Source: a virus
Lineage: Duplodnaviria; Caudoviricetes
IMG/VR virus record: IMGVR_UViG_3300027754_000085
Span: 989-64,988 of that record
Length of the DNA stretch: 64,000 nucleotides
Strand: one strand, 5' to 3'
The position numbers were made by a program, and so were the translations under genes. Position 1 is the first letter of the stretch; every line of letters starts with the position of its first letter. Below are positions 11,285-64,000 of this stretch, in pieces. The notes beneath the pieces were generated by a model. That model saw only the letters and a program-made list of their open reading frames with translations. It was not told the origin of the DNA and searched no databases.

Positions 11285-11289
11285 GTTAA

Positions 11290-31839: not shown

Positions 31840-31991
31840 GGACTCGTTTAGTTTATGGAAGTCAAAACAAGTTCTTGCAATTTTACGGGGATGTAATGCT
31901 GACCGTAGGTTCCTTCTTCCAAAACATCGGTTTACGTTATGGCGGGATGTACGAGATTGAAGACTGGGAATCAGGGGACGACGATCTATAA
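31836..31991 (+). CDS. Hypothetical 51-aa protein, absent from ORF track
   Basis: ATGA overlap; MRTRLVYGSQNKFLQFYG...GDDDL. Confidence 0.5.
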   Translation: MRTRLVYGSQNKFLQFYGDVMLTVGSFFQNIGLRYGGMYEIEDWESGDDDL

Positions 31992-33424: not shown

Positions 33425-33435
33425 GAGGGAGCATA

Positions 33436-34686: not shown

Positions 34687-35615
34687 TAGATGTCGAAAAG
34701 GTTTTGCTATCTTTAGACCTCACACTCTATTCTCAACGTGGTGAAGAGGTGCAGGGCTTATGCCCTATGCATAAAGAGAGAACTGGAAAAGAAGATCACA
34801 ACCCATCGTGGTGGATTAATACAGACACTGGTGCACACATATGCTTCTCGTGTGGGTATAAGGGTAACGTATACACACTTGTAAAAGATTTAACTGGCCT
34901 TAATTTAAATGGCGCTAAGTCTTTTATAAAGGACAAGGGCAATGCCCCTATTGATAGTCTTATGAAAAGGATTAAAGAACTACCCCAGTATGTTCAAGCA
35001 GAAGAACCCGTATCAATGAGTGAAGCAAGACTGGCTGTGTACACAGACGCTCCAGATATTGAGTTAAAGAAAAGATTCTTAACTAGAGAAGCAGTTAATC
35101 ATTGTGGTGTTCGTTGGGACTCTAAGAACGAGTCTTGGATCTTACCTATTCGTGATCCAGAAACTTTTTCATTACTGGGATGGCAAGAAAAGGGTGCCAG
35201 AGGTAGATTCTTTAAGAACCAACCAACTGGAGTGAAAAAATCTAAGACGGTATTTAATGTAGAGAATTTAAACCCAGACTTACTCGTAGTTGTTGAATCA
35301 CCGTTAGACGTCGTTCGTCTTGCATCCTTAAATCGTTCAGGAGCCATCTCTACATATGGAGCAATAATTAGCGAAGACCAAGTAAAAATTATGCGTAGAT
35401 CTAAAAGAGTAATTGCAGCATTTGATAATGACAATGCTGGTAAAAAGGCAAACGAACAAATAAAAGATTATTCAAGAAAATATGGAATTGATTTATTGTT
35501 CTTTAACTATGAGGGTGTAGATGTAAAGGATGTTGGAGACATGACACCAACCCAAGTTACAGAGGGACTTGCTAATGCTAGACACGTCTTGTCTTTAAAG
35601 GAGAGTTACTTGTAA
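34683..35615 (+). CDS. dnaG: DNA primase (CHC2 zinc finger plus TOPRIM)
   Basis: CPMH...CFSC, VVES.LD, FDNDNAG and KDVGD motifs. Confidence 0.9.
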   Translation: MIDVEKVLLSLDLTLYSQRGEEVQGLCPMHKERTGKEDHNPSWWINTDTGAHICFSCGYKGNVYTLVKDLTGLNLNGAKSFIKDKGNAPIDSLMKRIKELPQYVQAEEPVSMSEARLAVYTDAPDIELKKRFLTREAVNHCGVRWDSKNESWILPIRDPETFSLLGWQEKGARGRFFKNQPTGVKKSKTVFNVENLNPDLLVVVESPLDVVRLASLNRSGAISTYGAIISEDQVKIMRRSKRVIAAFDNDNAGKKANEQIKDYSRKYGIDLLFFNYEGVDVKDVGDMTPTQVTEGLANARHVLSLKESYL

Positions 35616-35785
35616 TGGATCTTAGAGACAAAGAAAGACCCCTGCATGTGTGCGTCTGCGGCTCTACTTTATGGAACGTAAAGGCAATGTTTGAAGATGG
35701 AGAGATCTCCTTATACATGCTGGACATGGAGTGTGCACTGTGTGGTTCCCTAGCAACCGCCCCAACTCCGATAGACAATGTTTAA
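35615..35785 (+). CDS. Small Zn-binding protein, absent from ORF track
   Basis: HVCVCGS...MECALCGSLATAPTP; coupled to primase and helicase. Confidence 0.6.
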   Translation: MDLRDKERPLHVCVCGSTLWNVKAMFEDGEISLYMLDMECALCGSLATAPTPIDNV

Positions 35786-37337: not shown

Positions 37338-37346
37338 GGGGTAAAA

Positions 37347-37787
37347 ATGGCAAGAATAAAAAATATAGAACCAAGAATGTCTGATGAAAATGACTTTGGA
37401 TATCAAGCAAAACAATACGTATTTGTAAAAAAACAAGTTGAGTTCTTTGAAACAGAACTAAAAAAGTTAAAGGAAAAAATCTTTGAACACATAGATTCCA
37501 ATGGTGAACTTGACGGAAACGGCAATCTTTTTGTTGAGTTGCCTACGGAGGTTGAGGGTGTCAAGATGTTCCAAAAGCAACGTAGAGTTTCTCGTAAAAT
37601 TGAGGAAGGTGTTGCAGAACAAATAATTTCCGACAAGGGAATGGAAGATGAGTTATACAAGACCATTCGTGTTGTTGATGAAGACGCTTTAATGGCTGCT
37701 CTCTACGAGGGTAAATTAACCGAAGAAGAAATTGAACAAATGTACCCAGAGAAAATTGTCTGGGCGTTAGTGATGAATAAGAGATAA
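37347..37787 (+). CDS. Hypothetical coiled-coil protein
   Basis: AGGGGG SD; acidic helical ORF. Confidence 0.55.
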   Translation: MARIKNIEPRMSDENDFGYQAKQYVFVKKQVEFFETELKKLKEKIFEHIDSNGELDGNGNLFVELPTEVEGVKMFQKQRRVSRKIEEGVAEQIISDKGMEDELYKTIRVVDEDALMAALYEGKLTEEEIEQMYPEKIVWALVMNKR

Positions 37788-37790
37788 CAG

Positions 37791-38267
37791 ATGGCTGGAC
37801 TACGTGGAGAAGATGAGATCGAGAGAGCATTTGCTGATCTCGAATACATCCCTGGCTCCAAACGTAAACGCCGTGATCCAGACGAAAAGGTTTCTCGCCG
37901 TAAAAGCGGTGAGAGTAATGGTTGGGATAAAACACCAATCGTTAAAACACTAGGAGGAACAGAGACAGAGGTCTTTACTATCAGTGCACTAGCAATAGCA
38001 CTAGAAAAGACAATTGTTACTGTCCGACTGTGGGAGCGCAAAGGTTACATACCACGTGCACCATATCGACTTCGGTCTAAGACCCTTGCAGGGAAAAAGA
38101 CTGGAGGAAACCGTGTGTATACCAGAGCACTAATAGAGTCAGCAATCGACGAGTTTAATCGTCGAGGACTGTTAGGATCAGCCCGTGTAGAGTGGAATCA
38201 ACACGATGATCTTACCGACGCACTCGTTAAGCGTTGGAAAGAGATAACCCAAACCGAGAGCCAGTAG
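37791..38267 (+). CDS. MerR-like HTH DNA-binding protein
   Basis: FTISALA.ALEK..VTVRLWERKGYIP...RVYT. Confidence 0.75.
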   Translation: MAGLRGEDEIERAFADLEYIPGSKRKRRDPDEKVSRRKSGESNGWDKTPIVKTLGGTETEVFTISALAIALEKTIVTVRLWERKGYIPRAPYRLRSKTLAGKKTGGNRVYTRALIESAIDEFNRRGLLGSARVEWNQHDDLTDALVKRWKEITQTESQ

Positions 38268-38328
38268 TTTATTAATCCGTACAGTGATACGAAATAAACT
38301 GAGCGCCTCATTACCGAAAAGATAAAAA

Positions 38329-38976
38329 ATGCCTATAACAAAACCAACAGTAGATGCTTCTGCTTACCTTGATGAGGATGGCGAAGACACAACACCTAAA
38401 GTCGGCACCACAGTTCAAGAGGGCTGGGATGCATTTGACTCAATTGTAAAGTCAGAAACTTCAGAGTTTCCGACTGACTTTCGCTTCTCTGAAGAACCGC
38501 AACTTGTTAAGTTCTTAGATGACGCACCATTTGCATCTTACGAACAACACTGGATTGATCGCCCAAAGGGCAAGAAGTCTTTTGTTTGTATCGGTGATGC
38601 TTGCCCACTTTGCGACGTTCTAGGGGACAAGCCTCGTGGCAAATTTGCATTCAACATTGTTGTATTAACTGGGGACACTCAGGGAGTACAAATCTTGACA
38701 GCGCCACCATCATTGGCCCGTCAAATTAAAAAGGCTCATGAAGATGAGCGTAAAGGACCTCTATCAAAAGAGTTCTGGGAAATTTCTCGGTTAGGAATGG
38801 GACCAACAACGCAGTATACCCTTAACTTCGTTCGTGGTCGTGACCTGGCAGAGGAATGGAAGTTGAATCTCGATGAGGTTCAAGGGCTTGTAGCAGCCGC
38901 TGTACCGTTCACAGCAGAAGTTATTCGTGAGACCCCTCGCTCCGAAATGCTTGAGGTTGCTCGCTCTGTAGCGTAA
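38329..38976 (+). CDS. ssDNA-binding protein (gp32-like, Zn-binding)
   Basis: QHW...C..D.CPLC; position upstream of the polymerase. Confidence 0.65.
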   Translation: MPITKPTVDASAYLDEDGEDTTPKVGTTVQEGWDAFDSIVKSETSEFPTDFRFSEEPQLVKFLDDAPFASYEQHWIDRPKGKKSFVCIGDACPLCDVLGDKPRGKFAFNIVVLTGDTQGVQILTAPPSLARQIKKAHEDERKGPLSKEFWEISRLGMGPTTQYTLNFVRGRDLAEEWKLNLDEVQGLVAAAVPFTAEVIRETPRSEMLEVARSVA

Positions 38977-38989
38977 GCACACTTCCAAA

Positions 38990-39030
38990 GAAAGGGGGCC
39001 TGCTTACTTCCGTTTCCAGGTTCCCTTTCA
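38990..39030 (+). terminator. Hairpin/terminator after SSB
   Basis: GAAAGGGGGCCTG...CAGGTTCCCTTTC. Confidence 0.5.
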
Positions 39031-39047
39031 TTAACTTTGAGGGATAT

Positions 39048-41051
39048 ATGAATATTATTACAACCAAAGAAGAGTTAAAAGATCTTGTTGAGTTTTACTC
39101 CAAGGTAGATGCATTTGCTTTTGACGTTGAAACGGTTGGCGAAAACCGAATTCAACCTGTAGTTAACGACGTTATGTGGATATCACTAGCAACTGAGGGA
39201 CGCACAGATGTAATACCAATGGGACACCCAAACGGAGAGTTCTTAAATTGGGATAAAGAACTGCTACTTAGTGGACAACGTAAAGTTACTGCTGGAAAAG
39301 ATTTAAGAGACACCGACTATTCTAAAAACGAAGCAAAATGGAAACCCATATTTGACGCACCACCAGAACAACTTCTTCCAGGGGATGTGTTCAAGGCATT
39401 AAAACCTTTATTCTTTAGCAACAAACTAAAAATTGGTCACAACGTTAAGTTTGATCTTAAATCAATTGCTAAGTATTACCGTGGAGTAGTTCCTCAAAAG
39501 CCATTCTTTGACACAATGATGGCTTCTTTTGTTATTGATAACCGCAGTAGAAACAGTTTAGGACTTGCCGCTTGCGCTGAAAGAGAGTTAAAGATTAAGG
39601 TTGAAAAGGGAATTGGAGCAATGGTTGAAGTTCACTCATTTAGTGACGTTGCTCATTACTCTGGGTTTGACTCTGAAGTAACTTGGAAACTTTATAAGAT
39701 TCTTGATCCACAACTCAAAGGAGACTTAAAAAGAGTTTGGGCTTTAGAAATGGATGTTGTTGGAGCACTCTGTGACATGGAACTTGCTGGAGCCAACATA
39801 GATGTAGAAGAATTAAAGAGGTTAAAAAACAGAATTGAAAAAGACATTGACAATGCAAAAGCCAGAGCATGGAAATTAACTGGTAAACCATTCTCTATGA
39901 ACTCTATAAAAGAAAAACAAGAGTTACTATTTTCTACTAAAGAAGAAGGTGGACGTGGAATTAAACCTAACCTTCGGGTAAGGGTTGCTCTTACTGCAAA
40001 GGGGCAGACTATTGCTGCATCTGATCCATCTGCTTTAACTATAAATCAATACTCGGTTTCATCAGACGCTCTAGAGTTCTACAGAACAAAAGATGAACTA
40101 GTAGATGCAATATTGGATTATCAAGATTTAAACAAGTTAATGACTACATACGTTATGCCTTACCTTGGTGGAGAGATTACTAGAACAACTATGGGTAAAG
40201 AAAAAATTGTTGATAAGAAGAGCCTTATGATCAATGGTCGAGTTCACACTAACTTTAAATCCCATGGTGCAGAGACAGGAAGATTCTCTAGCAGTGATCC
40301 AAACCTACAGAACATTCCTAGCAGTGGAGAGTACGGAAAATTAATTCGTAATCTTTTTGTTGCCCCTCCTGGATACAAACTTGTAGTTGCTGACTACTCA
40401 CAAATTGAGCCAAGAATTATTGCGGCATTCTCTAACGACCCAATTATGGTGCAGAACTATAAAGAAGGAGGAGATATCTACACAACAATTGGTAAGACAA
40501 TGGGAGTAGATCGTAAAGCAGGAAAGGTTCTCGTTTTATCTATTGCCTATGGTGTTGGACCAGAAAAGATTGCTCAAAGTATTGGGTGCACAGTAAGAGA
40601 TGCCAAAGATCTTTTGAATAGATTTACTGAACAGTTTAGTGACATCTCTAAGTATCGAGCCAAGGTGATTCGTCAGGCAAGTTTAAGACCGCCTACTCCC
40701 TATGTCTCTACCCTTTTAGGTCGTCGCAGGTACATCCCAGACTTAAAGAGCAGAGAAATAGGGTTGAGATCAAGAGCAGAAAGACAGGCATTTAATACAG
40801 TTATTCAAGGTTCTGCAGCAGATTTAATGAAATTAGCAATGGTGAGAGCACACTCTTGTTTTGTGGATGAACCAGATGTGAATGTCGTTTTGACTGTACA
40901 CGATGAACTTGTTACCGTTGCTCGTGAAGATCTAGCAGAAGAGACTGCCGAAGCAATTCGGGAATCAATGGAAGGTATTTTCTTTCCAGAGATTACAGTT
41001 CCACTTATTGCAGATGTAAAGATAGTTAACAAGTGGGGAGAAGCAAAATGA
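39048..41051 (+). CDS. polA: DNA polymerase family A (3'-5' exonuclease plus polymerase)
   Basis: FDVET, HNVKFD, TGRFSSSDPNLQNIP, ADYSQIE, QGSAAD and VHDEL motifs. Confidence 0.95.
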   Translation: MNIITTKEELKDLVEFYSKVDAFAFDVETVGENRIQPVVNDVMWISLATEGRTDVIPMGHPNGEFLNWDKELLLSGQRKVTAGKDLRDTDYSKNEAKWKPIFDAPPEQLLPGDVFKALKPLFFSNKLKIGHNVKFDLKSIAKYYRGVVPQKPFFDTMMASFVIDNRSRNSLGLAACAERELKIKVEKGIGAMVEVHSFSDVAHYSGFDSEVTWKLYKILDPQLKGDLKRVWALEMDVVGALCDMELAGANIDVEELKRLKNRIEKDIDNAKARAWKLTGKPFSMNSIKEKQELLFSTKEEGGRGIKPNLRVRVALTAKGQTIAASDPSALTINQYSVSSDALEFYRTKDELVDAILDYQDLNKLMTTYVMPYLGGEITRTTMGKEKIVDKKSLMINGRVHTNFKSHGAETGRFSSSDPNLQNIPSSGEYGKLIRNLFVAPPGYKLVVADYSQIEPRIIAAFSNDPIMVQNYKEGGDIYTTIGKTMGVDRKAGKVLVLSIAYGVGPEKIAQSIGCTVRDAKDLLNRFTEQFSDISKYRAKVIRQASLRPPTPYVSTLLGRRRYIPDLKSREIGLRSRAERQAFNTVIQGSAADLMKLAMVRAHSCFVDEPDVNVVLTVHDELVTVAREDLAEETAEAIRESMEGIFFPEITVPLIADVKIVNKWGEAK

Positions 41052-53737: not shown

Positions 53738-54226
53738 TTGAATATACTCGTATCACTAGATGGCGTACTCAGTTCGGACTCAGGAGATCCAATCCGAGCA
53801 GGAGTAATGCTTTACTATGCTTTAAATATTAACAATCGTGTAGCAATTATGACTTCTCGCAAAGAAGAAGACGCAAAACACTGGTTAAACTCTCACGGAA
53901 TTATTAACTACGATGACTTGATTGACTACTCTTTTAATTTAGAAGGAGAAGACTTAAAGAAACGCCAATTTGTATTGAGCCGTAGTCGTGCTCCAATTGA
54001 GATGTATGTTGATTCTGATCCTGCCATGTGTGCATGGGTATTTGAAGAGCAGGGAATTCCTGCAATTATGTTTATGAACCCAGGTTATTTGGCTGTTGAA
54101 CGTCGTCCAGACGCACCAAAAAAAGTTCGCCAATGGGATCAAATTGAAGAATCAATAAACAGGGTTAACGTTGCACGTTCAGAAGCCGCTGCTCATCCAA
54201 AGCAACTAGAGTTCTGGGATGACTAA
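53738..54226 (+). CDS. HAD-fold protein (first Asp replaced by Ser)
   Basis: ILVSLDGVL, IMTSR, WL..HG and YVDSD motifs. Confidence 0.65.
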   Translation: MNILVSLDGVLSSDSGDPIRAGVMLYYALNINNRVAIMTSRKEEDAKHWLNSHGIINYDDLIDYSFNLEGEDLKKRQFVLSRSRAPIEMYVDSDPAMCAWVFEEQGIPAIMFMNPGYLAVERRPDAPKKVRQWDQIEESINRVNVARSEAAAHPKQLEFWDD

Positions 54227-55727
54227 GTTAATCTTCTCAGGTGTTGAAGTTGGTTCAAACCGCACCCTGCTAGAAGGTCAGAAGGTTGAGTCGATGGGAC
54301 TCAACTTTTGGGGTCTTCGTAAACGAGGACTACCAAAGACAAAGACATGGCTTATAAGCGAACACTTTGACTCTGAGACTAAGGTGTACATAGAGTCTGG
54401 GGCTTCTCAGGCCGATAAGGCTGGGCTGTCCAAGGAAGAGTTACTTGATGTAGCGGTAGAGTACCAAGAGTTTTTAGTCAATAATGCAGACCGAGCAGAA
54501 GGCTTTTTAGAGTTTGACTCTCAAGTATTAGGACTTCCATGGATTACTCAACAGAGGCCCTTCTTTGCTAACGACTCAAAGTTATGGGTAATCTGGCACG
54601 AAGAATATGGGCTTCCATATCTTAAAACTCTCTCAGAGAACCACGAGAATGTAGCAATACCTAACGATGAGATAGAGGCACTAACTAACTTAGCGGCCGT
54701 TACCAGGAGTTACTCAAGTCAGTTCGGTACTAAGTATCATGCTCTTGGATGTGCCAAACCTGACAACCTAAGACAGATACCATTTGTAACTGCAAGCACA
54801 TTGTCCTGGCTTTCACCTATGCGTCGAGGTGAGACCATAGTGTGGAATGGCACCTCACTTGCCCGTTATCCAAAGAAGATGAAAGACCAAGCCCGCCCAA
54901 GATACAAGGCAGTTGTAGAGAAGGCTGGACTGAACTATTTAGACTTTATACAAGATAGTACCCTCGAAGCGACTAGAGTAGCCATCTGGTCATACCTACA
55001 GTTGGAGACATCCATGGATAAGAAGACACCTGATCTACACATCATTGAAGGGGGTAAAAACTCCCAAGTATCTGATAACAGTGATACCCCACTACTATCG
55101 GGTTTGATGGATCTTATGGGGGGTGCTTCTGATAACAGTGGGGTAGAAGGGCGGAAAGTGGAGCGCAGTGGAGTGGTAGAACGAGACGTTTCTGAGATGC
55201 AAAACCTTCCTGTCTTTGGGTATAAAATGAAGACTGTAGTCGAAACCGATGATGAAGGAAAGGATGTTCTAAGAGATGTTCCAATTATCAGTAATCAATT
55301 TTCATCACTTCGTCAATGCAACACTTGTTTTGTTGCCTCGAATTGTCCTGCTTTCAAGCCTGACAATAATTGTGCTTTCAACCTTCCTGTCGAAGTAAAG
55401 ACTAAAGATCAACTTAAGGCTTTACTTAACGCAATTATTGAAATGCAGGGACAAAGAGTTGCTTTTATGCGTTTTGCAGAAGAAATGAATGGTGGATACG
55501 CCGACCCTAACGTATCTCAAGAAATAGATCGTTTGTTTAAATTAGTTGGTAACTTAAAAGAATTAGAAGAGAACCGAGAGTTTGTTCGCATTACTGCAGA
55601 GAGACAATCCTCTGGTGGAGTTCTGTCCGCTATCTTTGGAGACAGAGCGCAAGCACTTCGTGAACTACCTGAATCTTTGAAAGAAGAATCTGTTACAAGG
55701 ATTATTCAACAATCTATAGAAGACTAG
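54219..55727 (+). CDS. Degenerate TGT/DpdA-like TIM barrel fused to a Cys-rich helical domain
   Basis: VYIESGA, WH, KYHALG and TASTLSW (compare DSG, H.LG, S.DSSSW); CNTC....CP....C. Confidence 0.5.
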   Translation: MTKLIFSGVEVGSNRTLLEGQKVESMGLNFWGLRKRGLPKTKTWLISEHFDSETKVYIESGASQADKAGLSKEELLDVAVEYQEFLVNNADRAEGFLEFDSQVLGLPWITQQRPFFANDSKLWVIWHEEYGLPYLKTLSENHENVAIPNDEIEALTNLAAVTRSYSSQFGTKYHALGCAKPDNLRQIPFVTASTLSWLSPMRRGETIVWNGTSLARYPKKMKDQARPRYKAVVEKAGLNYLDFIQDSTLEATRVAIWSYLQLETSMDKKTPDLHIIEGGKNSQVSDNSDTPLLSGLMDLMGGASDNSGVEGRKVERSGVVERDVSEMQNLPVFGYKMKTVVETDDEGKDVLRDVPIISNQFSSLRQCNTCFVASNCPAFKPDNNCAFNLPVEVKTKDQLKALLNAIIEMQGQRVAFMRFAEEMNGGYADPNVSQEIDRLFKLVGNLKELEENREFVRITAERQSSGGVLSAIFGDRAQALRELPESLKEESVTRIIQQSIED

Positions 55728-55887
55728 TAATCTGATAACAGCAATTATTAGGTAGTGAAACATAGTTTACCCTTTTCCGCAAGTCAAAGGTAGTCAACCA
55801 AGTTAGCAAGTATATGATAGGTTCAGATCAAACATAATAGGAAACCCATTGAGGGGTATTTACACATTTATAGAAATGGTAGGGGTA

Positions 55888-57936
55888 ATGTCAGCATTGT
55901 CTTTTAATTTAGTCGAAGAATTTATTGCGCCATACAGAGCAAAGAAGGCGCCATTCGGTTATCAAGATGCAGCAGGAAATTCAGTAGGAGAGATTACTTT
56001 TCTTAGGACGTATTCAAGACTTAAGGCAAATGGTACTAAGGAGACATGGGCAGACGTATGCGAGAGAGTGATCAATGGCATGTACTCTTTGCAGAAAGAT
56101 CACGCCAAGACAAATAGACTTCCTTGGTCTGATGCCAAGGCAGCAGCCTCAGCAAAAGAAGCATTTGATCGCCTATGGAATTTAAAGTGGACTCCACCAG
56201 GTCGTGGATTATGGGTAATGGGAACTGACATAGTCAACGTTCAAAGAAACTCAGCAGCCTTACAGAACTGTGCATTTGTATCAACTGGCTCTATGACTAA
56301 AACAGACCCAGCCAAACCGTTTGCATTTTTAATGGAAGCGTCTATGCTTGGAGTAGGTGTTGGCTTTGATGACAAGGGTGCAGATAAAGACTTCACTATC
56401 TACGCACCACAAAAAGGAGAAACGTATGTCATCCCAGATACCCGAGAGGGATGGGTCGAATCCACAGCAGTCCTACTTAACTCTTACTTACGCCCAGACT
56501 TTAAGGCTCCTACCTTTGACTATGCACTTATCCGCAAAGCAGGGGAACCAATTAAAACTTTCGGTGGAACCGCAGCAGGTCCAGAGCCACTCATTAGGCT
56601 CCATAATTACATCGATGGAATCTTCAAAGAACGTGCTGGTCAGAAACTTACCCGCATTGACATCGCTGATATTGGGAACCTTATTGGGGTGTGTGTTGTT
56701 TCTGGTAATGTGCGTCGCTCTGCCGAACTTCTTATAGGTCGAGTAGATGATCAAGACTTCCTTAATTTAAAGAACTCAGATAAGTTTCCAGAACGTAACT
56801 CTTACGATCCTGCTAAACCAGGTTGGGCTTGGATGTCTAACAACTCTGTAGCAGTTAATGTTGGTGATGACCTAGACAACATTATTGAAGGTATTGCTTT
56901 GAATGGCGAGCCAGGTGTGGTCTGGATGGATATCTCTCGTCAGTATGGTCGCCTTTCTGATCCAATTAACAACAAAGACTGGCGTATTGCTGGCTACAAC
57001 CCATGTGCTGAACAATCTCTTGAATCATTCGAGTGTTGCACGTTAGTAGAGACTTACCTAAACCGTCATGAAACTTTAGAAGACTTCAAAAGAACTCTCA
57101 AGTTTGCATACCTTTACGCTAAGACTGTAACTCTCCTACCTACTCACTGGGAAGAGACCAATGCCATAATGCAACGCAATCGCCGTATTGGAACTTCTGT
57201 TTCAGGCGTTGCTAACTTTGCGGACAACAAAGGTCTTCCAGTATTACGTCAATGGATGGATGAAGGCTACAAAACTATCAAGGCTTATGACACTAACTAT
57301 TCAGAGTGGCTTGGCATACGTGAGTCAATAAAAATGACAACGGTTAAACCTTCTGGAACAGTGAGTATCTTGGCTGGAGAATCTCCAGGAGTTCACTGGA
57401 CTGTTGGTGGTAAATACTTTAATCGTGCAATTCGTTTTGCTAATAACGATCCAATGCTTCCCCTATTTAAAATGGCTAACTACAGAGTAGAACCAGCAAG
57501 TGAGTCTCCTGATACGACTTCTGTTGTCTTCTTCCCTATTAAGTCTTCGGCTAGGAGATCTGAAAAAGATGTAAGTATTTATGAGAAGATGGCACTTGCT
57601 GCAACTGCTCAACGCTACTGGTCAGACAATTCTGTTTCAGTAACTATCTCTTTTGATCCTGAGACAGAGGCTTCCTCTATTGGTACGGCTTTGCATATGT
57701 ATGACGGACAACTTAAGACTGTGTCCTTCTTACCTTCAGGTAATCATGTCTATGCACAAATGCCTTACACACAAATCACTGCCGAAGAGTATGAGAATGA
57801 AGGAACTTTAAAGTTATTTCCTATTGACTTTACTGGTGTTTACGCTGGTATGGCTTCTGATGCTATTGGTGAGGCTTACTGCACAACTGATGCTTGCGAA
57901 GTTCGCCTAATTAAAGAGCACCAAGTAACTCAATAA
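55888..57936 (+). CDS. nrdJ: Class II (adenosylcobalamin) ribonucleoside-triphosphate reductase
   Basis: RTYSR, PPGRGLW, NC, NPCAEQ, TVKPSGT and C-terminal CTTDAC. Confidence 0.95.
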   Translation: MSALSFNLVEEFIAPYRAKKAPFGYQDAAGNSVGEITFLRTYSRLKANGTKETWADVCERVINGMYSLQKDHAKTNRLPWSDAKAAASAKEAFDRLWNLKWTPPGRGLWVMGTDIVNVQRNSAALQNCAFVSTGSMTKTDPAKPFAFLMEASMLGVGVGFDDKGADKDFTIYAPQKGETYVIPDTREGWVESTAVLLNSYLRPDFKAPTFDYALIRKAGEPIKTFGGTAAGPEPLIRLHNYIDGIFKERAGQKLTRIDIADIGNLIGVCVVSGNVRRSAELLIGRVDDQDFLNLKNSDKFPERNSYDPAKPGWAWMSNNSVAVNVGDDLDNIIEGIALNGEPGVVWMDISRQYGRLSDPINNKDWRIAGYNPCAEQSLESFECCTLVETYLNRHETLEDFKRTLKFAYLYAKTVTLLPTHWEETNAIMQRNRRIGTSVSGVANFADNKGLPVLRQWMDEGYKTIKAYDTNYSEWLGIRESIKMTTVKPSGTVSILAGESPGVHWTVGGKYFNRAIRFANNDPMLPLFKMANYRVEPASESPDTTSVVFFPIKSSARRSEKDVSIYEKMALAATAQRYWSDNSVSVTISFDPETEASSIGTALHMYDGQLKTVSFLPSGNHVYAQMPYTQITAEEYENEGTLKLFPIDFTGVYAGMASDAIGEAYCTTDACEVRLIKEHQVTQ

Positions 57937-58168
57937 TTACATCTGCATGGCAAGGAAGTGGTGCACAAAAACAAACCAAATCCTTGCCACGCAAAGGTTC
58001 TAACCAATCTGGTTTGTCTTTTAGTATGGCTTCCGCATGGGCTTTGAACTTTTCTATGACTTCTGCTCTATCTCCGTCTTTTCCAATTACAAACGGATTT
58101 CCGTAAAGACTCCCACGACCTACATACTCAGCACCCTTTGGTGCTTGGTTAATTTTGTAAACTTTCAT
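57911..58168 (-). CDS. DUF4326-like protein
   Basis: YVGRGS.YGNPF...LRGKDLVCFCAP.PCHAD. Confidence 0.85.
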   Translation of the reverse strand: MKVYKINQAPKGAEYVGRGSLYGNPFVIGKDGDRAEVIEKFKAHAEAILKDKPDWLEPLRGKDLVCFCAPLPCHADVIIELLGAL

Positions 58169-58593
58169 TCTGATATGGCTTTTGGTATGGCTTTGCCTAT
58201 GGCTTTACACCTGTCTTGCTCTATGTGCTTTTTAATGGTTGTCTTTGAAGCCTCAACTAGGCTTTGAATTGTTGTATCAACCCCTATAAGTTTTACAGGA
58301 ACTGATTTCAAGGGCAAATCACATTCAGGACAAACCAGTATTAGTTGTCTGTCCCCAATTCTCCAAGGTTTAACGTCTAAGTTTGGTTCATCCCATTTCC
58401 AACTAAGTTGGGCTAAGTGTTTCCAAAACTCTTTTTCTACATCAATAACAATTTGTTTGCTTGTTATTTCTTTATTGTAGTGTTCTTTCTCAGACACAGA
58501 CTTGTAATAATCTGCTTTTGATTTTGTGTAACCCTCATGATAAGTATTTGGGTTCTCAAATTGCTTGGCTTTATCTAGGTATCCCTTTTTCAC
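58165..58593 (-). CDS. Hypothetical protein
   Basis: CPEC; C-terminal KAIGKAIPKAI; GGAG SD. Confidence 0.5.
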   Translation of the reverse strand: MKKGYLDKAKQFENPNTYHEGYTKSKADYYKSVSEKEHYNKEITSKQIVIDVEKEFWKHLAQLSWKWDEPNLDVKPWRIGDRQLILVCPECDLPLKSVPVKLIGVDTTIQSLVEASKTTIKKHIEQDRCKAIGKAIPKAISE

Positions 58594-58653
58594 TTATGCT
58601 CCAATCTAACTAACTAACTCATCTGGCGGCCAGGTAAGTTACTTACTGAGTAA

Positions 58654-58675
58654 GCCCCCTCATTTCTGAGGGGGC
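58654..58675. terminator. GC-rich hairpin (probable terminator)
   Basis: GCCCCCTCA-tttc-TGAGGGGGC directly after the 58682 stop. Confidence 0.6.
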
Positions 58676-58681
58676 CTCTCT

Positions 58682-59371
58682 TTATGCTCCTGCTCTTGCT
58701 CTTGCTTTGGCTTTTGCTAAGGCTTTGGCTTTTGCCTTGTCCTTTGCTTTTGCTATGGCTTTTGCTATGGCTTGTGAATTGCTGTAAGGGAACTTCTTTA
58801 ACCATGCCTTTGTGGCTGGTGTTAACCCCTTCCATGCTCTCCAGTTTTCTCCTTCATTACTCATAAAATAAGCAACTTGGGCATTTACCACAGGGCTTAA
58901 CAGTTCAGCATTTGATTCCAAATTGAACTTTGCTCTGCGATCCACCCCTAATTGACCGATCATATTGACTTGAAATAATCCATAAGAACTATCTCCTGTC
59001 TTTCGGTTTCCGTTGTAGGCGAGTGGTCGACCATGTGATTCTTTTTTGACTATTGCCCACGCTTCTTGTAGGGCTTTGCCTTTAAAGCCAACTGCCTTTA
59101 GCAACTCTACCAACTGGGTGTCGGTCAGGGTATCTGCGTTTCGATACTTGGCTAGAGTATGTGTGTTTAGTTGTTTTTGTATCACTAGGGCTTCGGCTTT
59201 AGTTGGGGCAACACATTCGGTTGTTCCGAAAATAGTTATCCCAAGAGCCAAGACCATAATTAGTCCACCTACTCCTAGTGCTTTGGCTTTTGATATGGCT
59301 TTGCTTTTCTGCTCTGCCATAACCTTTTCTACTGCTCTTGCGCTTGCTTGTGCTTGTGCTTTCATTATCAC
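58682..59371 (-). CDS. Membrane-anchored lysozyme-like transglycosylase with an Ala/Lys-rich tail
   Basis: TM segment; KES.G...N...DSSYGLFQVN...WRAW. Confidence 0.8.
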   Translation of the reverse strand: MIMKAQAQASARAVEKVMAEQKSKAISKAKALGVGGLIMVLALGITIFGTTECVAPTKAEALVIQKQLNTHTLAKYRNADTLTDTQLVELLKAVGFKGKALQEAWAIVKKESHGRPLAYNGNRKTGDSSYGLFQVNMIGQLGVDRRAKFNLESNAELLSPVVNAQVAYFMSNEGENWRAWKGLTPATKAWLKKFPYSNSQAIAKAIAKAKDKAKAKALAKAKARARAGA

Positions 59372-60693
59372 TCCAAAAAGTCGTTAGCACCTTCTGATGC
59401 CTTTGACTGGTGTGAACGAAGGCGATGTAAGTATCGCTCTGTCGTCTTGATCGATTGGTGTCCTAATCGCTCTTTTACTTCATGGACATCTACGCCGTTT
59501 TTTAATAACTGCGTAGCGTTGGCATGTCGTAAGTCGTGAGTTCTAGGCAACCAGCCGATTGCGGACTGGGCTATTGCTTTGTTCCATATAGTTCTCCATA
59601 CATTTCGTGGCAAATGACTCGTTTGGTCGATGAAACTCACCTGCTTCGGCTTCTGCTTCGGCTTTTGATATGGCTTCTGCTTTGCTTGCTTCGGCTGTGC
59701 TTCTGCTATGGCTTTGGCTCTGCGGTGATCTCTCACCGATTGCCTACAACCTTCGCATCTACAACCCCCATGTGTATAGGAGTAGAGAGTCCCATGCTGG
59801 AACAGTTTTCCGTTCCTTGCGAATGGTCGCAAGGACTCTGTGCCACGAATGTTTGCCTTAACCATAGCCTTTGGAACTACCGATGTCCTTGAAAACAGGA
59901 GATCATCTTTTGCTAGGGCTTTTGCTAGGACATAGGCTTGAATGTCCTGTAATAGAGGCTTGCTTATCATCAAACTGCGCTTGTAACCCGATTTTGTGGC
60001 TTCTATGACCATAAATCGAACTCCGTTGTTGTAATTCGCCCCAAGATCACTAACTCGGCGTTGAACGAATAATTCCCCAGTTTTGAAATTGAAATCTTTT
60101 ACTCGGACTTCTGTTGCTTCCCCAAATCTAAGTCCACTAGCCACTAAGAACTGGGCAAATAATTGCGCCCCCTCTGTCGGTAAGTGCTTAACGATCTCTT
60201 TGAAATCATCGGGGTCGAGAACATTAGTCAGATCGGCTTGCTTGATCTTGATCTTAATTCCCTGAGTTGGATTGGAACTCAATTCCCCAGTTTGAACTAA
60301 CTTTGAAAACGCTGATCCGAGCGATGCCTTCACTTGTCCAAGAGTGGCTGAACCCACCTTCTCGGACTTTAGATCGCTAAGTAACTGGCTGATCTCCCGT
60401 ATGCTGATCGAAGTTACTTCCTGATCGCCAATTCGGGGCAGAACATAATTATCGAGAATAGATCGGTAACCCTTTTTTGTGATCGGCATCAGATCGGCAG
60501 TTGGAAGCCATTGATCAATATAGGCAGATAGCGTTAATTGGCTTTTAGAAGGCTTTGGTAGCCCTAATCTCTCGGATTGAATGGCGTTATACATGGCTTC
60601 GGTTTCGGTGTCCCAAGTCCCTGCTGAAAGCCTTTTACCAGCGTGTCGATAATAGCCAGTAAATCTATTTTGACGCTTGATCACATAAGCCAT
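59368..60693 (-). CDS. int: Tyrosine recombinase/integrase with a Zn-finger-like insertion
   Basis: SGLRFGE, TK, HDLRH, LGH and TERY; start re-placed at ATG 60693. Confidence 0.9.
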   Translation of the reverse strand: MAYVIKRQNRFTGYYRHAGKRLSAGTWDTETEAMYNAIQSERLGLPKPSKSQLTLSAYIDQWLPTADLMPITKKGYRSILDNYVLPRIGDQEVTSISIREISQLLSDLKSEKVGSATLGQVKASLGSAFSKLVQTGELSSNPTQGIKIKIKQADLTNVLDPDDFKEIVKHLPTEGAQLFAQFLVASGLRFGEATEVRVKDFNFKTGELFVQRRVSDLGANYNNGVRFMVIEATKSGYKRSLMISKPLLQDIQAYVLAKALAKDDLLFSRTSVVPKAMVKANIRGTESLRPFARNGKLFQHGTLYSYTHGGCRCEGCRQSVRDHRRAKAIAEAQPKQAKQKPYQKPKQKPKQVSFIDQTSHLPRNVWRTIWNKAIAQSAIGWLPRTHDLRHANATQLLKNGVDVHEVKERLGHQSIKTTERYLHRLRSHQSKASEGANDFLE

Positions 60694-60713
60694 AACCCAC
60701 CCCCTTCGGTTGT

Positions 60714-60905
60714 TACTGGTGAGTAATGTTACTCGCCAGTAGGTTTCAAAGCAAAAAATCACCCCCAACCCGATTAAGGATTGGGGGTGATTTAAATCAC
60801 ATAGGGACTAAGGCGAATTGGCTTATGTAGGGACTAACTCGAAGATCAGCCAGAAAAGTTAGTTCACGCTAGAACTAACTTATGGTGGCTTCAGAAAAGT
60901 TAGTT
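60714..60905. repeat. attP-like/operator region with palindromes and direct repeats
   Basis: IR 60714-60741; palindrome 60787-60800; TAGGGACTAA twice; CAGAAAAGTTAGTT twice. Confidence 0.55.
60753..60793 (-). terminator. Rho-independent terminator (minus strand)
   Basis: AAATCACCCCCAA...TTGGGGGTGATTT followed by a T-run on the minus strand. Confidence 0.7.
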
Positions 60906-61449
60906 ACCAACTTGCTCGGTAACTGAACTCTAGGTCAGCGTGTTCGAGTAACGAAGTGATCAGATCAATCGTGTATTCGAGTTGCCAATAATAAAAATCA
61001 TCAAGTTCAGTATCACCAAAGAAAAATCCCTCAGCAGGTTGAACTGGATTTTCATACTGATCAGCATTGAGTTCTTGATTAAGAGAGTTCAAATAGTCGC
61101 ATAATAAATAAAATACTTTGTTATTTGTGATCTCGTATTTGCGATCAGGATTAGCCAAAGCAATTAAGCAATCGTTTCTTAAACTTTCTAATTGATCTCT
61201 GCTCAGATGTATCTCTTGGCAGTTATCCTCACCACCAGCGCAGTTACTTACAACCCAGTTATGAATTGCGTTTGCTTTGCGCCAGTAACCAACCTTCTGT
61301 TTAACTTCCATACCTGAATACTCAGGAGTTGGTAATTGTTCCAACTTTGCTAACTTTTGGATTTCGTTAAACATAGTTGGGTGATCTTTGTCCATGAAAT
61401 CTGATGAATGGATATACCGATTGGCATACAGATACATATCTAATCCCAT
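60904..61449 (-). CDS. Conserved-type phage protein
   Basis: MGLDMY...YWRKANAIHNW...GFFFG...YRASW. Confidence 0.65.
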   Translation of the reverse strand: MGLDMYLYANRYIHSSDFMDKDHPTMFNEIQKLAKLEQLPTPEYSGMEVKQKVGYWRKANAIHNWVVSNCAGGEDNCQEIHLSRDQLESLRNDCLIALANPDRKYEITNNKVFYLLCDYLNSLNQELNADQYENPVQPAEGFFFGDTELDDFYYWQLEYTIDLITSLLEHADLEFSYRASW

Positions 61450-61610
61450 TATTCGATCTCCTTAACAATATCGATCGCAACATCGATTGCGCTTATTGCG
61501 CCGTCTAGCGTTGCGTAATCAGTATTTCCGTCAGATTCAGCATTGATCTGACGATCACGCCAAAGCATTTGAAGTGAACTAAGTTCTTTTAATGCTTGAT
61601 CTTTAGTCAT
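61449..61610 (-). CDS. Small hypothetical protein, absent from ORF track
   Basis: MTKDQALKELSSLQ...IVKEIE; coupled. Confidence 0.5.
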   Translation of the reverse strand: MTKDQALKELSSLQMLWRDRQINAESDGNTDYATLDGAISAIDVAIDIVKEIE

Positions 61611-61756
61611 TCTACGATCTCCCACTCAAAGCCTTTGATCTTGCCTTCAATCTCTAATTGCTCGATCTGATATTTAATTAGATCATGGGCAAACGCTGGT
61701 GCGTTATCTCCTTCGTGATCATCATTAAGTTCAATATAGATATTCATTAAAGCCAT
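61607..61756 (-). CDS. Small hypothetical protein, absent from ORF track
   Basis: MALMNIYIELND...WEIVE; coupled. Confidence 0.5.
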   Translation of the reverse strand: MALMNIYIELNDDHEGDNAPAFAHDLIKYQIEQLEIEGKIKGFEWEIVE

Positions 61757-61947
61757 TAGTCGATCTCCTGTTCCATTATCGGGCGGTTAGACACCCAGTT
61801 GTCGATTGTTTCTTGTTTCCAAACTGGTGTTCTCCCGATCATCTTGTCGGGTTTGGGAAGGGTGTTGCGCTTTCGATACTTGTAAAGAGTTTTGAGTTTT
61901 AGCCCTGTTTGTTTTGCTATGTCTGTATTTGTGAGCCATTCGCTCAT
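61756..61947 (-). CDS. AlpA/excisionase-like HTH protein
   Basis: LT..DIA..TG....TLY.Y.....LP.PD...GRTPVW...TID.W. Confidence 0.75.
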   Translation of the reverse strand: MSEWLTNTDIAKQTGLKLKTLYKYRKRNTLPKPDKMIGRTPVWKQETIDNWVSNRPIMEQEID

Positions 61948-62447
61948 AACGCTTTCCCAACTTTCTTTTTACTCTCATTTATTTTTTTCCTTTCGATATA
62001 CCAAGTTGTTATTGGCTTACAGTTATCGTAATTAGTTACACGATCTACCCATACATAAGGCAGATCATTAGGAACTTTGAACTGGTAATGATCAGAGTTC
62101 TTACGCTTTAAGTTACTTTGATGCGATCTATGAACTTTTTTATTACCTAACCATAAGGGCAAACCTGTGTCGGGTAATTCGGAATAGATCGCAATAAATC
62201 TTTCTCGCATAGTGTCCTTGTATCCACGACTAATCCATTCATCGCAGATCGCAATTCCGTATTCGCATAGTGATCGCTCATGTCCACGCCACATTTTAGT
62301 AATTGGGTGATTAACCCAACCCTTAGTCTGTCCACGAAGGGCATTAAGAACCTGCCACGCCTCAACTCGTTGCTTACCTAATCTCCTGTAATCAAGAGCC
62401 TTAGCCGATCGTTTAAAGTCCGAATAAGGTAAGAATGTATTAACCAT
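61944..62447 (-). CDS. Pyrimidine-dimer DNA glycosylase (endonuclease V / MSMEG_6728-like)
   Basis: TFLPY...LD.RRLGKQRVE...HP...MW.G...SHQSNL. Confidence 0.8.
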   Translation of the reverse strand: MVNTFLPYSDFKRSAKALDYRRLGKQRVEAWQVLNALRGQTKGWVNHPITKMWRGHERSLCEYGIAICDEWISRGYKDTMRERFIAIYSELPDTGLPLWLGNKKVHRSHQSNLKRKNSDHYQFKVPNDLPYVWVDRVTNYDNCKPITTWYIERKKINESKKKVGKAL

Positions 62448-62739
62448 TGTTATTACTCCTATTTTGTTTTCGTTTGATTGATTCTCTTTCGGCTTCGGTT
62501 AAACCGCCCCAAATCCCATAACGAATACTGTTATCGAGAGCAAAAGATAAGCACTCACTCTTAGTAGTTGTTTTACAATTAGCACAGATTCTTTTAGCAT
62601 TTTGTATTTTTTCCTGATCAGTTGGGTCAGGAAAGAACAATTCGGGGTCAGTTGATTGACATGGTGCGTTGTCAATCTTGCGTGATACTGGTGTTTTTAA
62701 TGGGAAGTGTTTGCCTTTAAGTTTTGATTCATCACTCAT
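62440..62739 (-). CDS. whiB: WhiB-family regulator (second copy)
   Basis: C..TDPELFFP...AK.IC..C.....C...GIWGGLTE.ER. Confidence 0.9.
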   Translation of the reverse strand: MSDESKLKGKHFPLKTPVSRKIDNAPCQSTDPELFFPDPTDQEKIQNAKRICANCKTTTKSECLSFALDNSIRYGIWGGLTEAERESIKRKQNRSNNNG

Positions 62740-63049
62740 CAATTTCACCGCTTTTTATGAAGTCAACATACTTCTCCATTACTTCAACAAGATCAGTAGG
62801 AGATAGGTCATTGAAGCGCAATAGAACTTCAATAATATGAATTAGACCCCAAACCAACATCTCAGGTTCAAGATCATGCTCTTTGATCAAAGAGTTTAAA
62901 TGTTCATTGGCTAAGTGTTCTTTGATCTCAGTTGGAAGGCTATCGGGGCGTTCTTGATCAACTTTAAACCCACGAATAACTTTTAAAAACTCTGTTGCGA
63001 ACTTAACTGAGTTGATTAAATCTTTCTGATCTTTACTTAACTCACTCAT
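62732..63049 (-). CDS. Hypothetical protein
   Basis: Coupled ORF with SD. Confidence 0.5.
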   Translation of the reverse strand: MSELSKDQKDLINSVKFATEFLKVIRGFKVDQERPDSLPTEIKEHLANEHLNSLIKEHDLEPEMLVWGLIHIIEVLLRFNDLSPTDLVEVMEKYVDFIKSGEIDE

Positions 63050-63255
63050 TCCTTCTCCTTTAGGTAGTTGTTAGCAATCTCATTGAGTTGGTCATACTTT
63101 GAGAAGCCGTAATTGTTTTGATGACCTGTATTTTCTGAGCAATCAACACATTGTCCTGATACTGGAACTTCACAACCACATTCACAGTTACATTGGGGTT
63201 CTTGATCGAAAACTTCATCGAATAAACTTTCGTCAAGTGGTGCGCCGTCATACAT
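63046..63255 (-). CDS. Cys-rich small protein
   Basis: CNCECGC...CVDC...H; start re-placed at 63255 (AGGAG SD). Confidence 0.5.
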   Translation of the reverse strand: MYDGAPLDESLFDEVFDQEPQCNCECGCEVPVSGQCVDCSENTGHQNNYGFSKYDQLNEIANNYLKEKE

Positions 63256-63400
63256 TAGTTCTCCTTTGTCGAAAATACGCTGATTCAATTTTTCTGATCG
63301 TAATCCGATCAGTATTAAACATCTTTGCCACTTCTGCCAAAGATCGTTGGTAATTAACTCGCTGATCAATAATTTGATCAATCTCTAATTGCGTGAACAT
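63248..63400 (-). CDS. Stand-alone sigma70 region-4-like HTH (50 aa), absent from ORF track
   Basis: QRSLAEVAKMFNTDRITIRKIE; GGAG SD. Confidence 0.55.
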   Translation of the reverse strand: MFTQLEIDQIIDQRVNYQRSLAEVAKMFNTDRITIRKIESAYFRQRRTNV

Positions 63401-63430
63401 TAAAACTCCGTTTCTAATAGTGAGAAGTCA

Positions 63431-63540
63431 GGTAGGCGCAGATACGACTAGGCAAAGTCAGTTGCCATAATGATCGCCCTTCACAAGTAAAGGAGTAGGG
63501 GAAAATGAAAGACCCTACAAACCTTGCGTTAACGCCTACC
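63431..63540. ncRNA. Candidate multi-stem structured RNA
   Basis: Closing stem GGTAGGCG/CGCCTACC enclosing three hairpins. Confidence 0.35.
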
Positions 63541-63552
63541 CAACAAAGTTAA

Positions 63553-63735
63553 TTAAGCGTTTAGTTTTTTCTTGAACTGGCGTTGCGCTTCAACGCAGTT
63601 GAAACAGAACCAAAGAATGTCCTGTGAATAAGCATCTGTGATCATTTGACCACTAGTTTTTAGTCCTTGTTGACCGCATTGATCACATAGATCAAGTTGA
63701 TCAGGAGTAACTTTTATTATTTCAAAGTAACCCAT
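63553..63735 (-). CDS. Small Zn-finger protein
   Basis: CDQC...CFNC. Confidence 0.55.
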   Translation of the reverse strand: MGYFEIIKVTPDQLDLCDQCGQQGLKTSGQMITDAYSQDILWFCFNCVEAQRQFKKKLNA

Positions 63736-63896
63736 TATTTATTCCACCCATAACATTCCAGCATTGATTTGAAGCAGTAACGATCTCCAACCCAATTAAC
63801 ATGATCAACAACCCACATTAGCCCTGAGAGAGCGACCAATACAGTTACCAGTAAAGAGATCGCAAATACGATCTCACCTCTACGAGTTAGGTTCAT
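63735..63896 (-). CDS. Small membrane protein
   Basis: MNLTRRG followed by a TM segment. Confidence 0.55.
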   Translation of the reverse strand: MNLTRRGEIVFAISLLVTVLVALSGLMWVVDHVNWVGDRYCFKSMLECYGWNK

Positions 63897-63999
63897 TTTA
63901 AGCACTCCTTTCCATAGCAAGTCGGTATCTCCAACTGTTTAATTCTTTGTGCGTTTTAATTCTGTGGCAACTAGAACAACGAACCACACATTTCTTGAT
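63893..63999 (-). CDS. HNH endonuclease-like C-terminus (partial)
   Basis: IKKCVVRCSSCHRIKTH. Confidence 0.55.
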
Positions 64000-64000
64000 C

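Follow-up and report, generated by a model that had tools for sequence, protein, structure and literature searches.

Why should one part of a phage genome be crowded with a single 4-bp palindrome and, along the same stretch, be emptied of several others? The question is raised by IMG/VR viral record IMGVR_UViG_3300027754_000085, a 64,988-bp contig that is classed as linear and has a CheckV completeness of ~65%, of which we analysed bases 989–64,988 (64,000 bp, hereafter the window, so that window and contig end at the same base). From ~5.3 to 57.9 kb, the genes of the window lie on the plus strand and include those for tail proteins (sheath, baseplate hub, baseplate wedge), for replication (DnaB-like helicase, primase, SNF2 helicase, family A polymerase, RecA) and for nucleotide metabolism (a T4-gp1-like deoxynucleoside monophosphate (dNMP) kinase, an operon ending in a TGT-like protein and a ribonucleotide reductase, RNR); this part is referred to as the body. 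From 57,911 to the contig end, all open reading frames (ORFs) are on the minus strand, opposite to the body, and this block, referred to as the island, is the one in which GATC abounds and other palindromes are missing. Our analysis of the window and of related contigs shows that this block belongs to the same genome as the body and has been proofed against restriction. Across the phage family, the 4-bp palindromes that the hosts of a lineage apparently cut are cleared from the island, in many cases from nowhere else, and GATC is either erased genome-wide or, in the clade to which the window belongs, raised inside the island.

The initial annotation of this DNA, made from the letters of the window, had reported about 65 GATC sites in 60,190–64,000 and about seven in 4.9–12.8 kb, spread over unrelated genes and different frames, and these figures held on recounting. 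The GATC-saturated sub-domain (60,191..64,000, no strand assigned) carries 65 sites (17.1 per kb, in the form HGATCD) where a zero-order model predicts 13.7, a second-order Markov model 37.0 and an extrapolation of the body, at 3.36 per kb, 12.8; 4,900–12,800 holds exactly 7 and the body as a whole 178 in 53 kb, which is at or below expectation. Sixty-two of the sites are inside ORFs (30, 6 and 26 in frames 0, 1 and 2, respectively) and 3 are intergenic; none is a GGATC, one is a GATCC, none is an AGATCT, and TGATCA occurs 15 times against 1.25 expected.

Gene content does not account for this excess, as the initial annotation had proposed, for it survived all three protein-preserving controls. 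Synonymous permutation within genes gave 34.2±3.5 GATC against 63 observed in ORFs (0 of 500 permutations reached the observed count), resampling of codons from the usage of plus-strand genes gave 22.9±3.9, and a permutation that barred the creation of new GTAC, TGCA, ACGT, GGCC, AGCT, CCGG, CGCG, GGATC, GATCC and AGATCT gave 34.8±3.1 (0 of 200 reached 63). The excess amounts to 4.7-fold over the zero-order expectation and 1.8-fold over the protein- and codon-preserving permutations. At the level of codon pairs, those able to spell GATC did so in 62 of 109 cases (57%) in the island versus 144 of 922 in the body, and where Asp was followed by a codon able to start with C, GATC was spelled in 32 of 39 cases. 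The shuffles and the codon-pair counts together rule out a by-product of amino-acid or codon usage. Nor does the purge of other palindromes create the excess, since the expectation remains at 34.8±3.1 when the purged words are forbidden. Avoidance of ultraviolet-induced dimers in early genes was considered and rejected, AA/TT being no lower in the island than in the body (rho 1.13 vs 1.08). The spacing of the sites is approximately geometric (coefficient of variation 0.86–1.11 across eight domains), with a mean of 59 bp over 3.8 kb here, and neither clusters nor helical phasing were found, the amplitude at 10–11 bp being at noise level; density over kilobases, and not the position of sites, is what is kept.

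Over the island, the other palindromes are lost, again much as first annotated: GTAC and TGCA, common elsewhere, were said to be missing after ~58,000 and GGCC and ACGT to be nearly absent. Going along the window, GTAC is last seen at 57,683, TGCA at 57,962, ACGT at 58,373 and GGCC at 58,673. Within 57,963–64,000 there are no GTAC (21.2 expected from body density, P=6e-10), no TGCA (36.3 expected, P=2e-16), one ACGT (19.5 expected, P=7e-8) and two GGCC (5.8 expected, P=0.07, a deficit that alone is not significant). These four words are cleared atop AGCT, CCGG and CGCG, which are missing genome-wide, AGCT and CCGG being absent (0) from the whole window and contig and CGCG nearly gone (4). In the ORFs from 60,191 onwards, synonymous permutation predicted means of 6.5 GTAC, 6.3 TGCA, 6.3 ACGT and 11.0 AGCT where none of any is present, and none of 500 permutations was as low as observed for any of the four. 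Strand orientation was rejected as the cause of the purge, as a minus-strand cassette at 1,221–4,868 keeps 14 GTAC, 11 TGCA and 13 ACGT. The palindrome-free part begins at ~57,911–57,962 and the GATC-rich part 2.3 kb later, at ~60,190, within the integrase gene (59,368..60,768, minus strand), of which the C-terminal 828 nt hold 4 GATC sites and the N-terminal 578 nt hold 14.

Relatives were gathered from IMG/VR by two anchors, the pyrimidine-dimer DNA glycosylase of the island (61,944..62,447, minus strand; T4 DenV-like, PF03013, E=2.3e-22), which gave 59 loci, and RNR (55,849..57,936, plus strand), the last gene of the body, whose stop marks the convergent island boundary and for which 80 loci were kept of more than 600 matched. 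The gene order SLT-integrase-HTH-glycosylase-WhiB recurs in these relatives at 45–90% protein identity, and full islands in complete relatives measure 8–13 kb, so that the stretch 57,911..64,000 of the window (minus strand; without GTAC, TGCA, ACGT, GGCC, AGCT, CCGG and CGCG apart from the few sites counted above) is about half of a conserved, oppositely transcribed island, its RNR-proximal part, cut by the contig end. Loss of words was tallied in 64 loci, deduplicated and extending 3 kb or more to either side of the RNR stop. Purges confined to the island numbered 50 word-by-locus events in 22 of the 64 loci (ACGT 15, GGCC 11, GTAC 11, ATAT 6, TGCA 5, CATG 1, CCGG 1), compared with 4 events in 4 of 64 confined to the body, and the purge edges fall within a few hundred bp of the opposite-strand gene block.

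One case is G006, a complete genome of 97,380 bp with a single large minus-strand block at ~38.7–51.2 kb, in which GTAC, TGCA, ACGT and ATAT (260, 527, 245 and 319 in the genome, respectively) all vanish over the same 12.3–14.3 kb, and in which GATC, AGCT and CCGG are absent genome-wide. Similar purged domains with other word sets were found in G007 (96,345 bp) and G003 (87,211 bp), and G002 (100,324 bp) has no GGCC across its island. AGCT is absent from the contigs of the window, G002, G003, G006 and G007 (65–100 kb each), and CCGG from four of them, with 2 in G002. A search for repeats at the divergent island ends of G006 and G002 gave nothing telling. In the G006 island (39–51 kb) we also observed TCGA at 13, 10, 9 and 9 per 3 kb versus ~2–9 elsewhere, and CGCG at 5, 1, 10 and 10 versus 0–4. 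The one-sidedness of island-only loss (50 vs 4) requires that island and body be differentially exposed: a cut site anywhere in the molecule is lethal, so losing sites from the island only makes sense if the island meets enzymes that spare the body. Such differential exposure could be a matter of timing, the island entering or acting ahead of the body, or of chemistry, the body being modified.

GATC itself follows another pattern. Among the 59 glycosylase-anchored loci, 23 are without GATC and 9 have it at 7.9 per kb or more; among the 64 RNR-anchored loci, GATC is lost on both sides in 19 and on one side only, the island alone included, in none, and both complete genomes G006 and G007 have no GATC at all. 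Within one clade it is raised 3–5 fold inside the island: in G002 the counts per 2 kb at 26–34 kb are 21, 37, 29 and 23 versus 2–15 elsewhere, the G003 island has 26, 23, 37, 34 and 20 per 3 kb, L010 carries 17–23 per kb over 11 kb, and island-limited enrichment was also seen in L006, L029 and L107, among others. On a FastTree phylogeny of RNR (109 rows, 83 classifiable), 12 of the 15 rich rows fall into one 29-row clade (support 88), which also includes the window, 6 normal rows and 3 GATC-free rows; the label 'rich' was given for at least 20 GATC in some 2-kb window, and also caught L093, L095 and L115, where the arm is no richer than the body. A rich locus (L029) and a GATC-free one (L080) are sisters on this tree, which needs at least 15 changes of GATC state, although, coming from one gene of a mosaic family, these are not firm event counts.

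Comparison of the same genes across these states shows how the word rises and falls. In four orthologous island genes, with the first 60 nt of every ORF dropped when the count was repeated, the opportunities to spell GATC were used in 259 of 540 cases in rich loci, 25 of 113 in normal loci and 0 of 248 in GATC-free loci. Of 86 GATC positions aligned across nine rich integrase sequences, 56 occur in a single sequence, a count that shifts by a few sites at most given that some relatives' integrase ORFs are over-extended at the 5' end; the window integrase shares 15 of 18 positions with L005, and only 0–1 with L010 and L013. L005, which is 87% identical to the window over 58,661–60,849 and has the same drop in GATC density inside the integrase, contains 7 GGATC and 11 GATCC where the window has 0 and 1, and this difference between such close sequences implies that longer words overlapping GATC are being removed over short evolutionary times. 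The flanks are different in L029 (AGATCT 18, TGATCA 9), so the enriched unit is GATC and not a hexamer. The rise works via the choice of codons and codon pairs, the sites turn over, and the density of GATC is kept by a directional force on the DNA that is opposite in sign to that in sister lineages. That the excess is selected had been the view of the initial annotation; its recurrence in the orthologous islands of relatives, mostly at other positions, makes a continuing DNA-level pressure the best reading.

By analogy, the purge of the island is best read as early exposure to restriction of the kind met by T5 first-step-transfer DNA. In T5 and BF23 this DNA is described as restriction-insensitive and as acting before the remaining DNA is protected, and the likeness lies in a bounded block of ~10 kb of small early-type genes that is site-free, with sites tolerated elsewhere (PMC10644984). 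Unlike T5, the assemblies of this family are circular, the phage is a myovirus and its host is probably actinobacterial; up to seven 4-bp palindromes are lost together, and one palindrome is saturated, a feature not described for T5.

We put at roughly 0.4 the probability that the island is early-exposed (leading or pre-early) DNA in which GATC is tolerated and in which its marking or occupancy by a specific factor, most likely from the host, is the more beneficial the denser the sites. The island would then have to work while the phage in the cell still lacks its shield against restriction, making it a leading or pre-early module akin to the first-step-transfer DNA of T5, and it is plausible that this arm enters the cell first. 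For the GATC-rich lineages, GATC would count as a 'safe' word to which a factor specific for it binds or adds a mark; a host methylase would be the most likely candidate for the marking, since no phage methylase was found. The trait under selection would be the density of the mark, or of occupancy, on the exposed DNA, acting as a self-mark or a shield. A more general form of this idea, which we regard as doubtful though worth stating, is that unprotected phage DNA carries a 'density mark': palindromes that can be cut are erased, one tolerated methylase-type palindrome (here GATC) is brought near saturation so that host-type modification or a binding protein covers the block (as self-mark, shield or ratchet), and a lineage flips to total loss once its hosts gain the cutting enzyme. 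If true, this would be a general anti-defence principle for leading phage DNA that has not yet been described.

Several results weigh against early exposure with GATC as the tolerated word. G006 has 127-bp identical ends, which point to a circular assembly, G007 is classed with direct terminal repeats, and in G002, the contig of which breaks inside structural genes, TerL is ~16 kb from the island start; if the genome is packaged headful and permuted, the logic of entering first falls. A weak measure, the depth of contigs from run X1 (8–12 over the island vs 10–15 over the body), indicates weakly that the island is not a long terminal repeat. The GATC-rich domain matches neither the palindrome-free domain nor a transcription unit, as it starts inside the integrase gene, 570 bp beyond a strong terminator-like hairpin (60,756..60,793, minus strand; 16-bp stem with 8 GC pairs and a T-run) that lies between the acidic 181-aa gene and the integrase. 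Under classical restriction-modification more sites are a liability, so that a benefit of density needs a further mechanism.

The search for the factor itself was likewise unhelpful to that reading. In the phage records searched, no methylase of the D12, N6_N4, Dam or C5 types was matched (PF02086 in 0 of 11, PF01555 in 0 of 6, PF05869 in 0 of 6 and PF00145 in 0 of 1; other families were not searched), which left without a match, within these families, the GATC methylase that the initial annotation had suggested looking for elsewhere in the genome. No gene tracked the GATC state within ±10 kb of the anchors, nor in a comparison of G002 and G003 with G006 and G007, where only small or alternative-frame ORFs differed, none of them resembling a GATC enzyme; the sole sizeable cluster limited to GATC-free loci (10 of 16) encodes a DUF1281_C/Api92-like protein, the other clusters being HTH proteins or without a family. 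For seven draft genomes of Lake Biwa actinobacteria analysed by single-molecule real-time (SMRT) sequencing, 0 methylated motifs and 0 methylases were reported (PMC6329791), and a host GATC mark is unsupported for this group, as represented by these partial genomes.

It is possible, but on balance unlikely, that the island is instead read by the phage itself. A phage-encoded, low-specificity, cooperative protein would recognise the island by the density of a 4-bp word, for a switch-off after the early phase, for compaction or for shielding, the word being GATC where hosts do not cut it and other words elsewhere. The near-geometric spacing without clusters or 10.5-bp phasing, by which density and not position is kept, is what such a code would produce; the GATC-free island of G006 has raised TCGA and CGCG instead, and the island encodes several small proteins of DNA-binding type (HTH_17, WhiB and Cys4 peptides). 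However, no candidate reader co-varies with GATC state, either within ±10 kb of the anchors or between the two rich and two GATC-free near-complete genomes; a change of word would require a co-evolving reader; and the enriched word is a classical methylase and restriction palindrome which sister lineages erase, pointing to host enzymes.

We consider it rather improbable that the two parts of the molecule differ chemically, such that a phage-made base modification protects the body, the island lacks it and so alone loses sites, and GATC richness is tied to whatever excludes or replaces the modification. The body does encode the T4-gp1-like dNMP kinase (PF21448, E=1.4e-16) and, upstream of RNR, a conserved four-gene operon from 51,946 that ends in the TGT/DpdA-like protein (54,219–55,727, 502 aa; phrog_887 'queuine tRNA-ribosyltransferase', E=2.5e-57, no Pfam family match), and this explanation would account for island-only purges even if virion DNA were circularly permuted. 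The Pfam TGT model, however, matched 0 of 5 family genomes, as did queC, and the operon is conserved alike in GATC-free, normal and rich relatives. Moreover, ATAT, which is among the words purged from the island only, has no G, so modification of guanine alone is insufficient; the body is not protected in general, as AGCT, CCGG and often GATC have been purged from it too; and no mechanism is known that would spare one 10-kb block. Judged from these gene searches, deazaguanine at GATC is not supported, and the specific marks put forward in the initial annotation (m6A, phosphorothioate or deazaguanine at GATC) gained no support from the phage records searched, in which no D12, N6_N4 or Dam-type methylase and no queC was found, or from a TGT-like gene that GATC-free relatives also possess.

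A non-adaptive origin seems less probable again. Host mismatch repair of the very-short-patch type, linked to methylation, or biased gene conversion would turn near-GATC words into GATC, and the sites would be functionless. Its model case is HIP1 (GCGATCGC), a palindrome with a GATC core that is hyper-abundant in cyanobacterial chromosomes together with GATC and CGATCG methylases and for which a repair-drive model has been published (PMC4390886); the turnover of GATC sites between our lineages would also fit. Against such a drive, the excess is limited to one sharp-edged block, the body of that molecule being at or below expectation, and GATT/AATC, the neighbour by a T-for-C change, is not depleted in the island (46 vs 41.3 expected, both strands; body 392 vs 536); a later study of HIP1 favours selection over repair (PMC5861425). 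HIP1 is described as an 8-bp word spread over the whole genome, 15- to 300-fold over-represented, with conserved positions and a periodicity of 10–90 kb (PMC4390886, PMC5861425). It resembles the island word in being a GATC-core palindrome far above expectation in coding DNA, in being replaced by alternate palindromes in some lineages, and in having a suspected link to a methylase with its function open (PMC4390886, PMC5861425). Unlike HIP1, the word in the window is 4 bp, 3–5 fold enriched, confined to one viral island, at positions that turn over and without periodicity, and no cognate methylase was found among the families searched in phage records.

Import of the island from a uniformly GATC-rich genome, or a chimeric assembly with such a genome, is largely refuted and, in our judgement, very improbable. 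The GATC boundary does lie inside the most conserved island gene, where crossovers are likely, the dinucleotide signatures of island and body differ (CpG rho 0.94 vs 0.64, GA/TC 1.13 vs 0.93), and the RNR is closest to that of GATC-normal loci (L064, L068 and L074), the island to L005. Independent Logan contigs nevertheless bridge the boundaries. Those of run X1, which may be the source sample of the contig, cover 57,874–59,445 and 59,761–61,290 with 0 differences, and one of run X2 covers 59,761–60,583; the two that start at 59,761 bridge 60,190, and the first crosses the 57,911–57,962 boundary, of which it covers ~37 letters to the left. Both sides have lost AGCT and CCGG, GC content is similar between island and body (42% for the window), and relatives of all three GATC states carry the arm in synteny, with orthologous genes at 55–87% protein identity, the state of GATC evolving in place at synonymous sites. 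No GATC-rich donor was found outside the family, the one unrelated GATC- and TCGA-rich contig (L063, 39 kb) having a GC content of 54%. Because of the bridging contigs, the shared losses and the synteny, the segment is not chimeric, as the initial annotation had allowed it might be, and the GATC-rich segment and the body belong to one genome. Recombination within the family probably sets the location of the boundary, but does not explain the excess.

Clusters of Dam sites, such as those of E. coli oriC (with SeqA) and P1 pac, occupy ~160–250 bp of non-coding or control DNA and are read via their methylation state. The likeness to them is a local GATC density far above the genome average, and TGATCA, so frequent here, is the P1 pac hexamer; yet where such a control site has about 7–11 GATC in no more than 250 bp, the window has a lower density, one per 59 bp, spread evenly, without cluster or phasing, across kilobases of coding DNA (at least 3.8 kb here, 8–12 kb in relatives and over 11 kb at most, 62 of 65 sites in ORFs), and with AGATCT twice as frequent as TGATCA in L029 the unit is not the hexamer, so that a discrete methylation-controlled origin or packaging signal, one of the options in the initial annotation, is disfavoured and the least probable of all. 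To our knowledge, Dam and SeqA are not known in Actinobacteria.

Parts of this picture are already known, namely regional site loss (T5), genome-wide loss of GATC, an unexplained excess of GATC (B3 mycobacteriophages) and palindromes with a GATC core (cyanobacteria). Subcluster B3 mycobacteriophages have GATC at ~4x the expected count genome-wide, unexplained and with GGATCC included (PMC4841201). In contrast, the window shows its excess in the island only, with neither GGATCC nor GGATC, and GATC is missing altogether from sister lineages. GATC was under-represented in all 46 phages whose hosts encode a GATC-specific enzyme, and the GATC-free relatives (23 of 59 and 19 of 64 loci) fit this published avoidance (PMC6286503); unlike such whole-genome avoiders, the island of the window is opposite in sign and its body at a normal level. 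In the literature we found no report of GATC enrichment limited to a region of a phage, nor of one word saturated within a block purged of others and alternating with total loss in sisters.

Accounts of restriction avoidance usually take the whole genome as their unit; in this family, which includes hundreds of uncultured lake phages, a conserved island with sharp bounds records the enzymes that each lineage meets. The remainder of the genome is somehow exempt, and from this contrast the timing or protection of phage DNA can be approached by sequence alone, even though the hosts are hardly culturable. The alternation of GATC excess with total loss means that the same word is an asset or a liability depending on the host, and for the asset side no published mechanism provides an explanation; the GATC excess of B3 mycobacteriophages and the HIP1 of cyanobacteria may be related to it. 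With rich, normal and GATC-free versions of the same genes, the family amounts to a set of natural replicates.

With WhiB, an HTH protein and four small proteins of acidic charge, the gene content of the island fits, as far as predicted families go, a module that acts early or in regulation. Beginning at the boundary with RNR, the minus strand encodes a DUF4326 protein, the last gene of the island (57,911..58,168; PF14216, E=1.3e-21), a hypothetical protein of 142 aa for which no family was matched (58,165..58,593), a lysozyme-like/SLT_3 protein with a Lys/Ala-rich tail (58,682..59,371; PF18896, E=7e-14) and the tyrosine integrase (PF00589, E=2e-22), the likely start of which is at 60,693. The integrase has a Cys-rich insert between its core-binding and catalytic parts, in which C311, C313 and C316 are invariant in an alignment of 10 sequences. 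The hairpin parts this integrase operon from the GATC-rich run of small genes, which comprises the acidic 181-aa protein (60,904..61,449, net charge -16; phrog_7971, a virus-only family with function unassigned), two small acidic ORFs of 58 and 49 aa taken from the ORF list and their charge (61,449..61,756), an HTH_17/excisionase-like protein (61,756..61,947; PF12728, E=3.9e-6), the glycosylase, a WhiB-family transcription factor (62,440..62,748; PF02467, E=8e-21) and, again from the ORF list and charge, four small ORFs (62,732..63,920) of 105 and 111 aa (both acidic), 60 aa (Cys4) and 61 aa, all on the minus strand. For the acidic 181-aa protein, the Atlas lists virus clusters only, none with families, and a single-sequence AlphaFold model was poor (pLDDT 45.8). 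Matches to sigma-70-like promoters in 57,500–64,000 (6 vs 13.8 in shuffles) were uninformative. The islands of relatives additionally hold a MoxR-type AAA+ ATPase and a VWA protein.

The WhiB gene of the island is a sign of an actinobacterial host (PMC10202952). Taken together with the 42% GC and the freshwater metagenomes that contain the sequence, it indicates that the host is probably a low-GC lake actinobacterium. The phage belongs to a large family of ~100-kb freshwater, probably actinobacterial, myoviruses in which the island is conserved. Megablast of 58,000–64,000 and of 30,000–40,000 against INPHARED phages gave no match, and a scan of 185,579 species-representative genomes with the integrase alignment found no prophage, with 1 weak, unrelated match.

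Some further observations concern single sites, genes or contigs. A contig of run X1 reads A for G at 61455 and at 61473, each of them the G of a GATC site, and a co-occurring strain without these two sites is present. The CpG contrast of the window, depleted in the body and not in the island, is likewise found in L010 and L029. The unrelated phage contig L063 (39,240 bp, 54% GC), the glycosylase match of which spans 19 residues only, has, over 10 kb, 9.7 sites per kb each of GATC and TCGA and lacks GTAC; it may be another case of palindrome enrichment beside a purge. In the body of the window, the tail-fibre/adhesin module at 6000–12999 is GATC-poor (4 sites in 7 kb vs ~3.4 per kb elsewhere in the body) and resembles neither G002 nor G006 at the nucleotide level; a GATC-free lineage may have exchanged it as a cassette. 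The collagen-like fibre gene is very dense in GTAC, with 36 per 2 kb at 1–2000 of the window, up to 52 per 2 kb in G002 (96–100 kb) and the same tendency in G006 (75–78 kb), a density that presumably stems from repeated codons.

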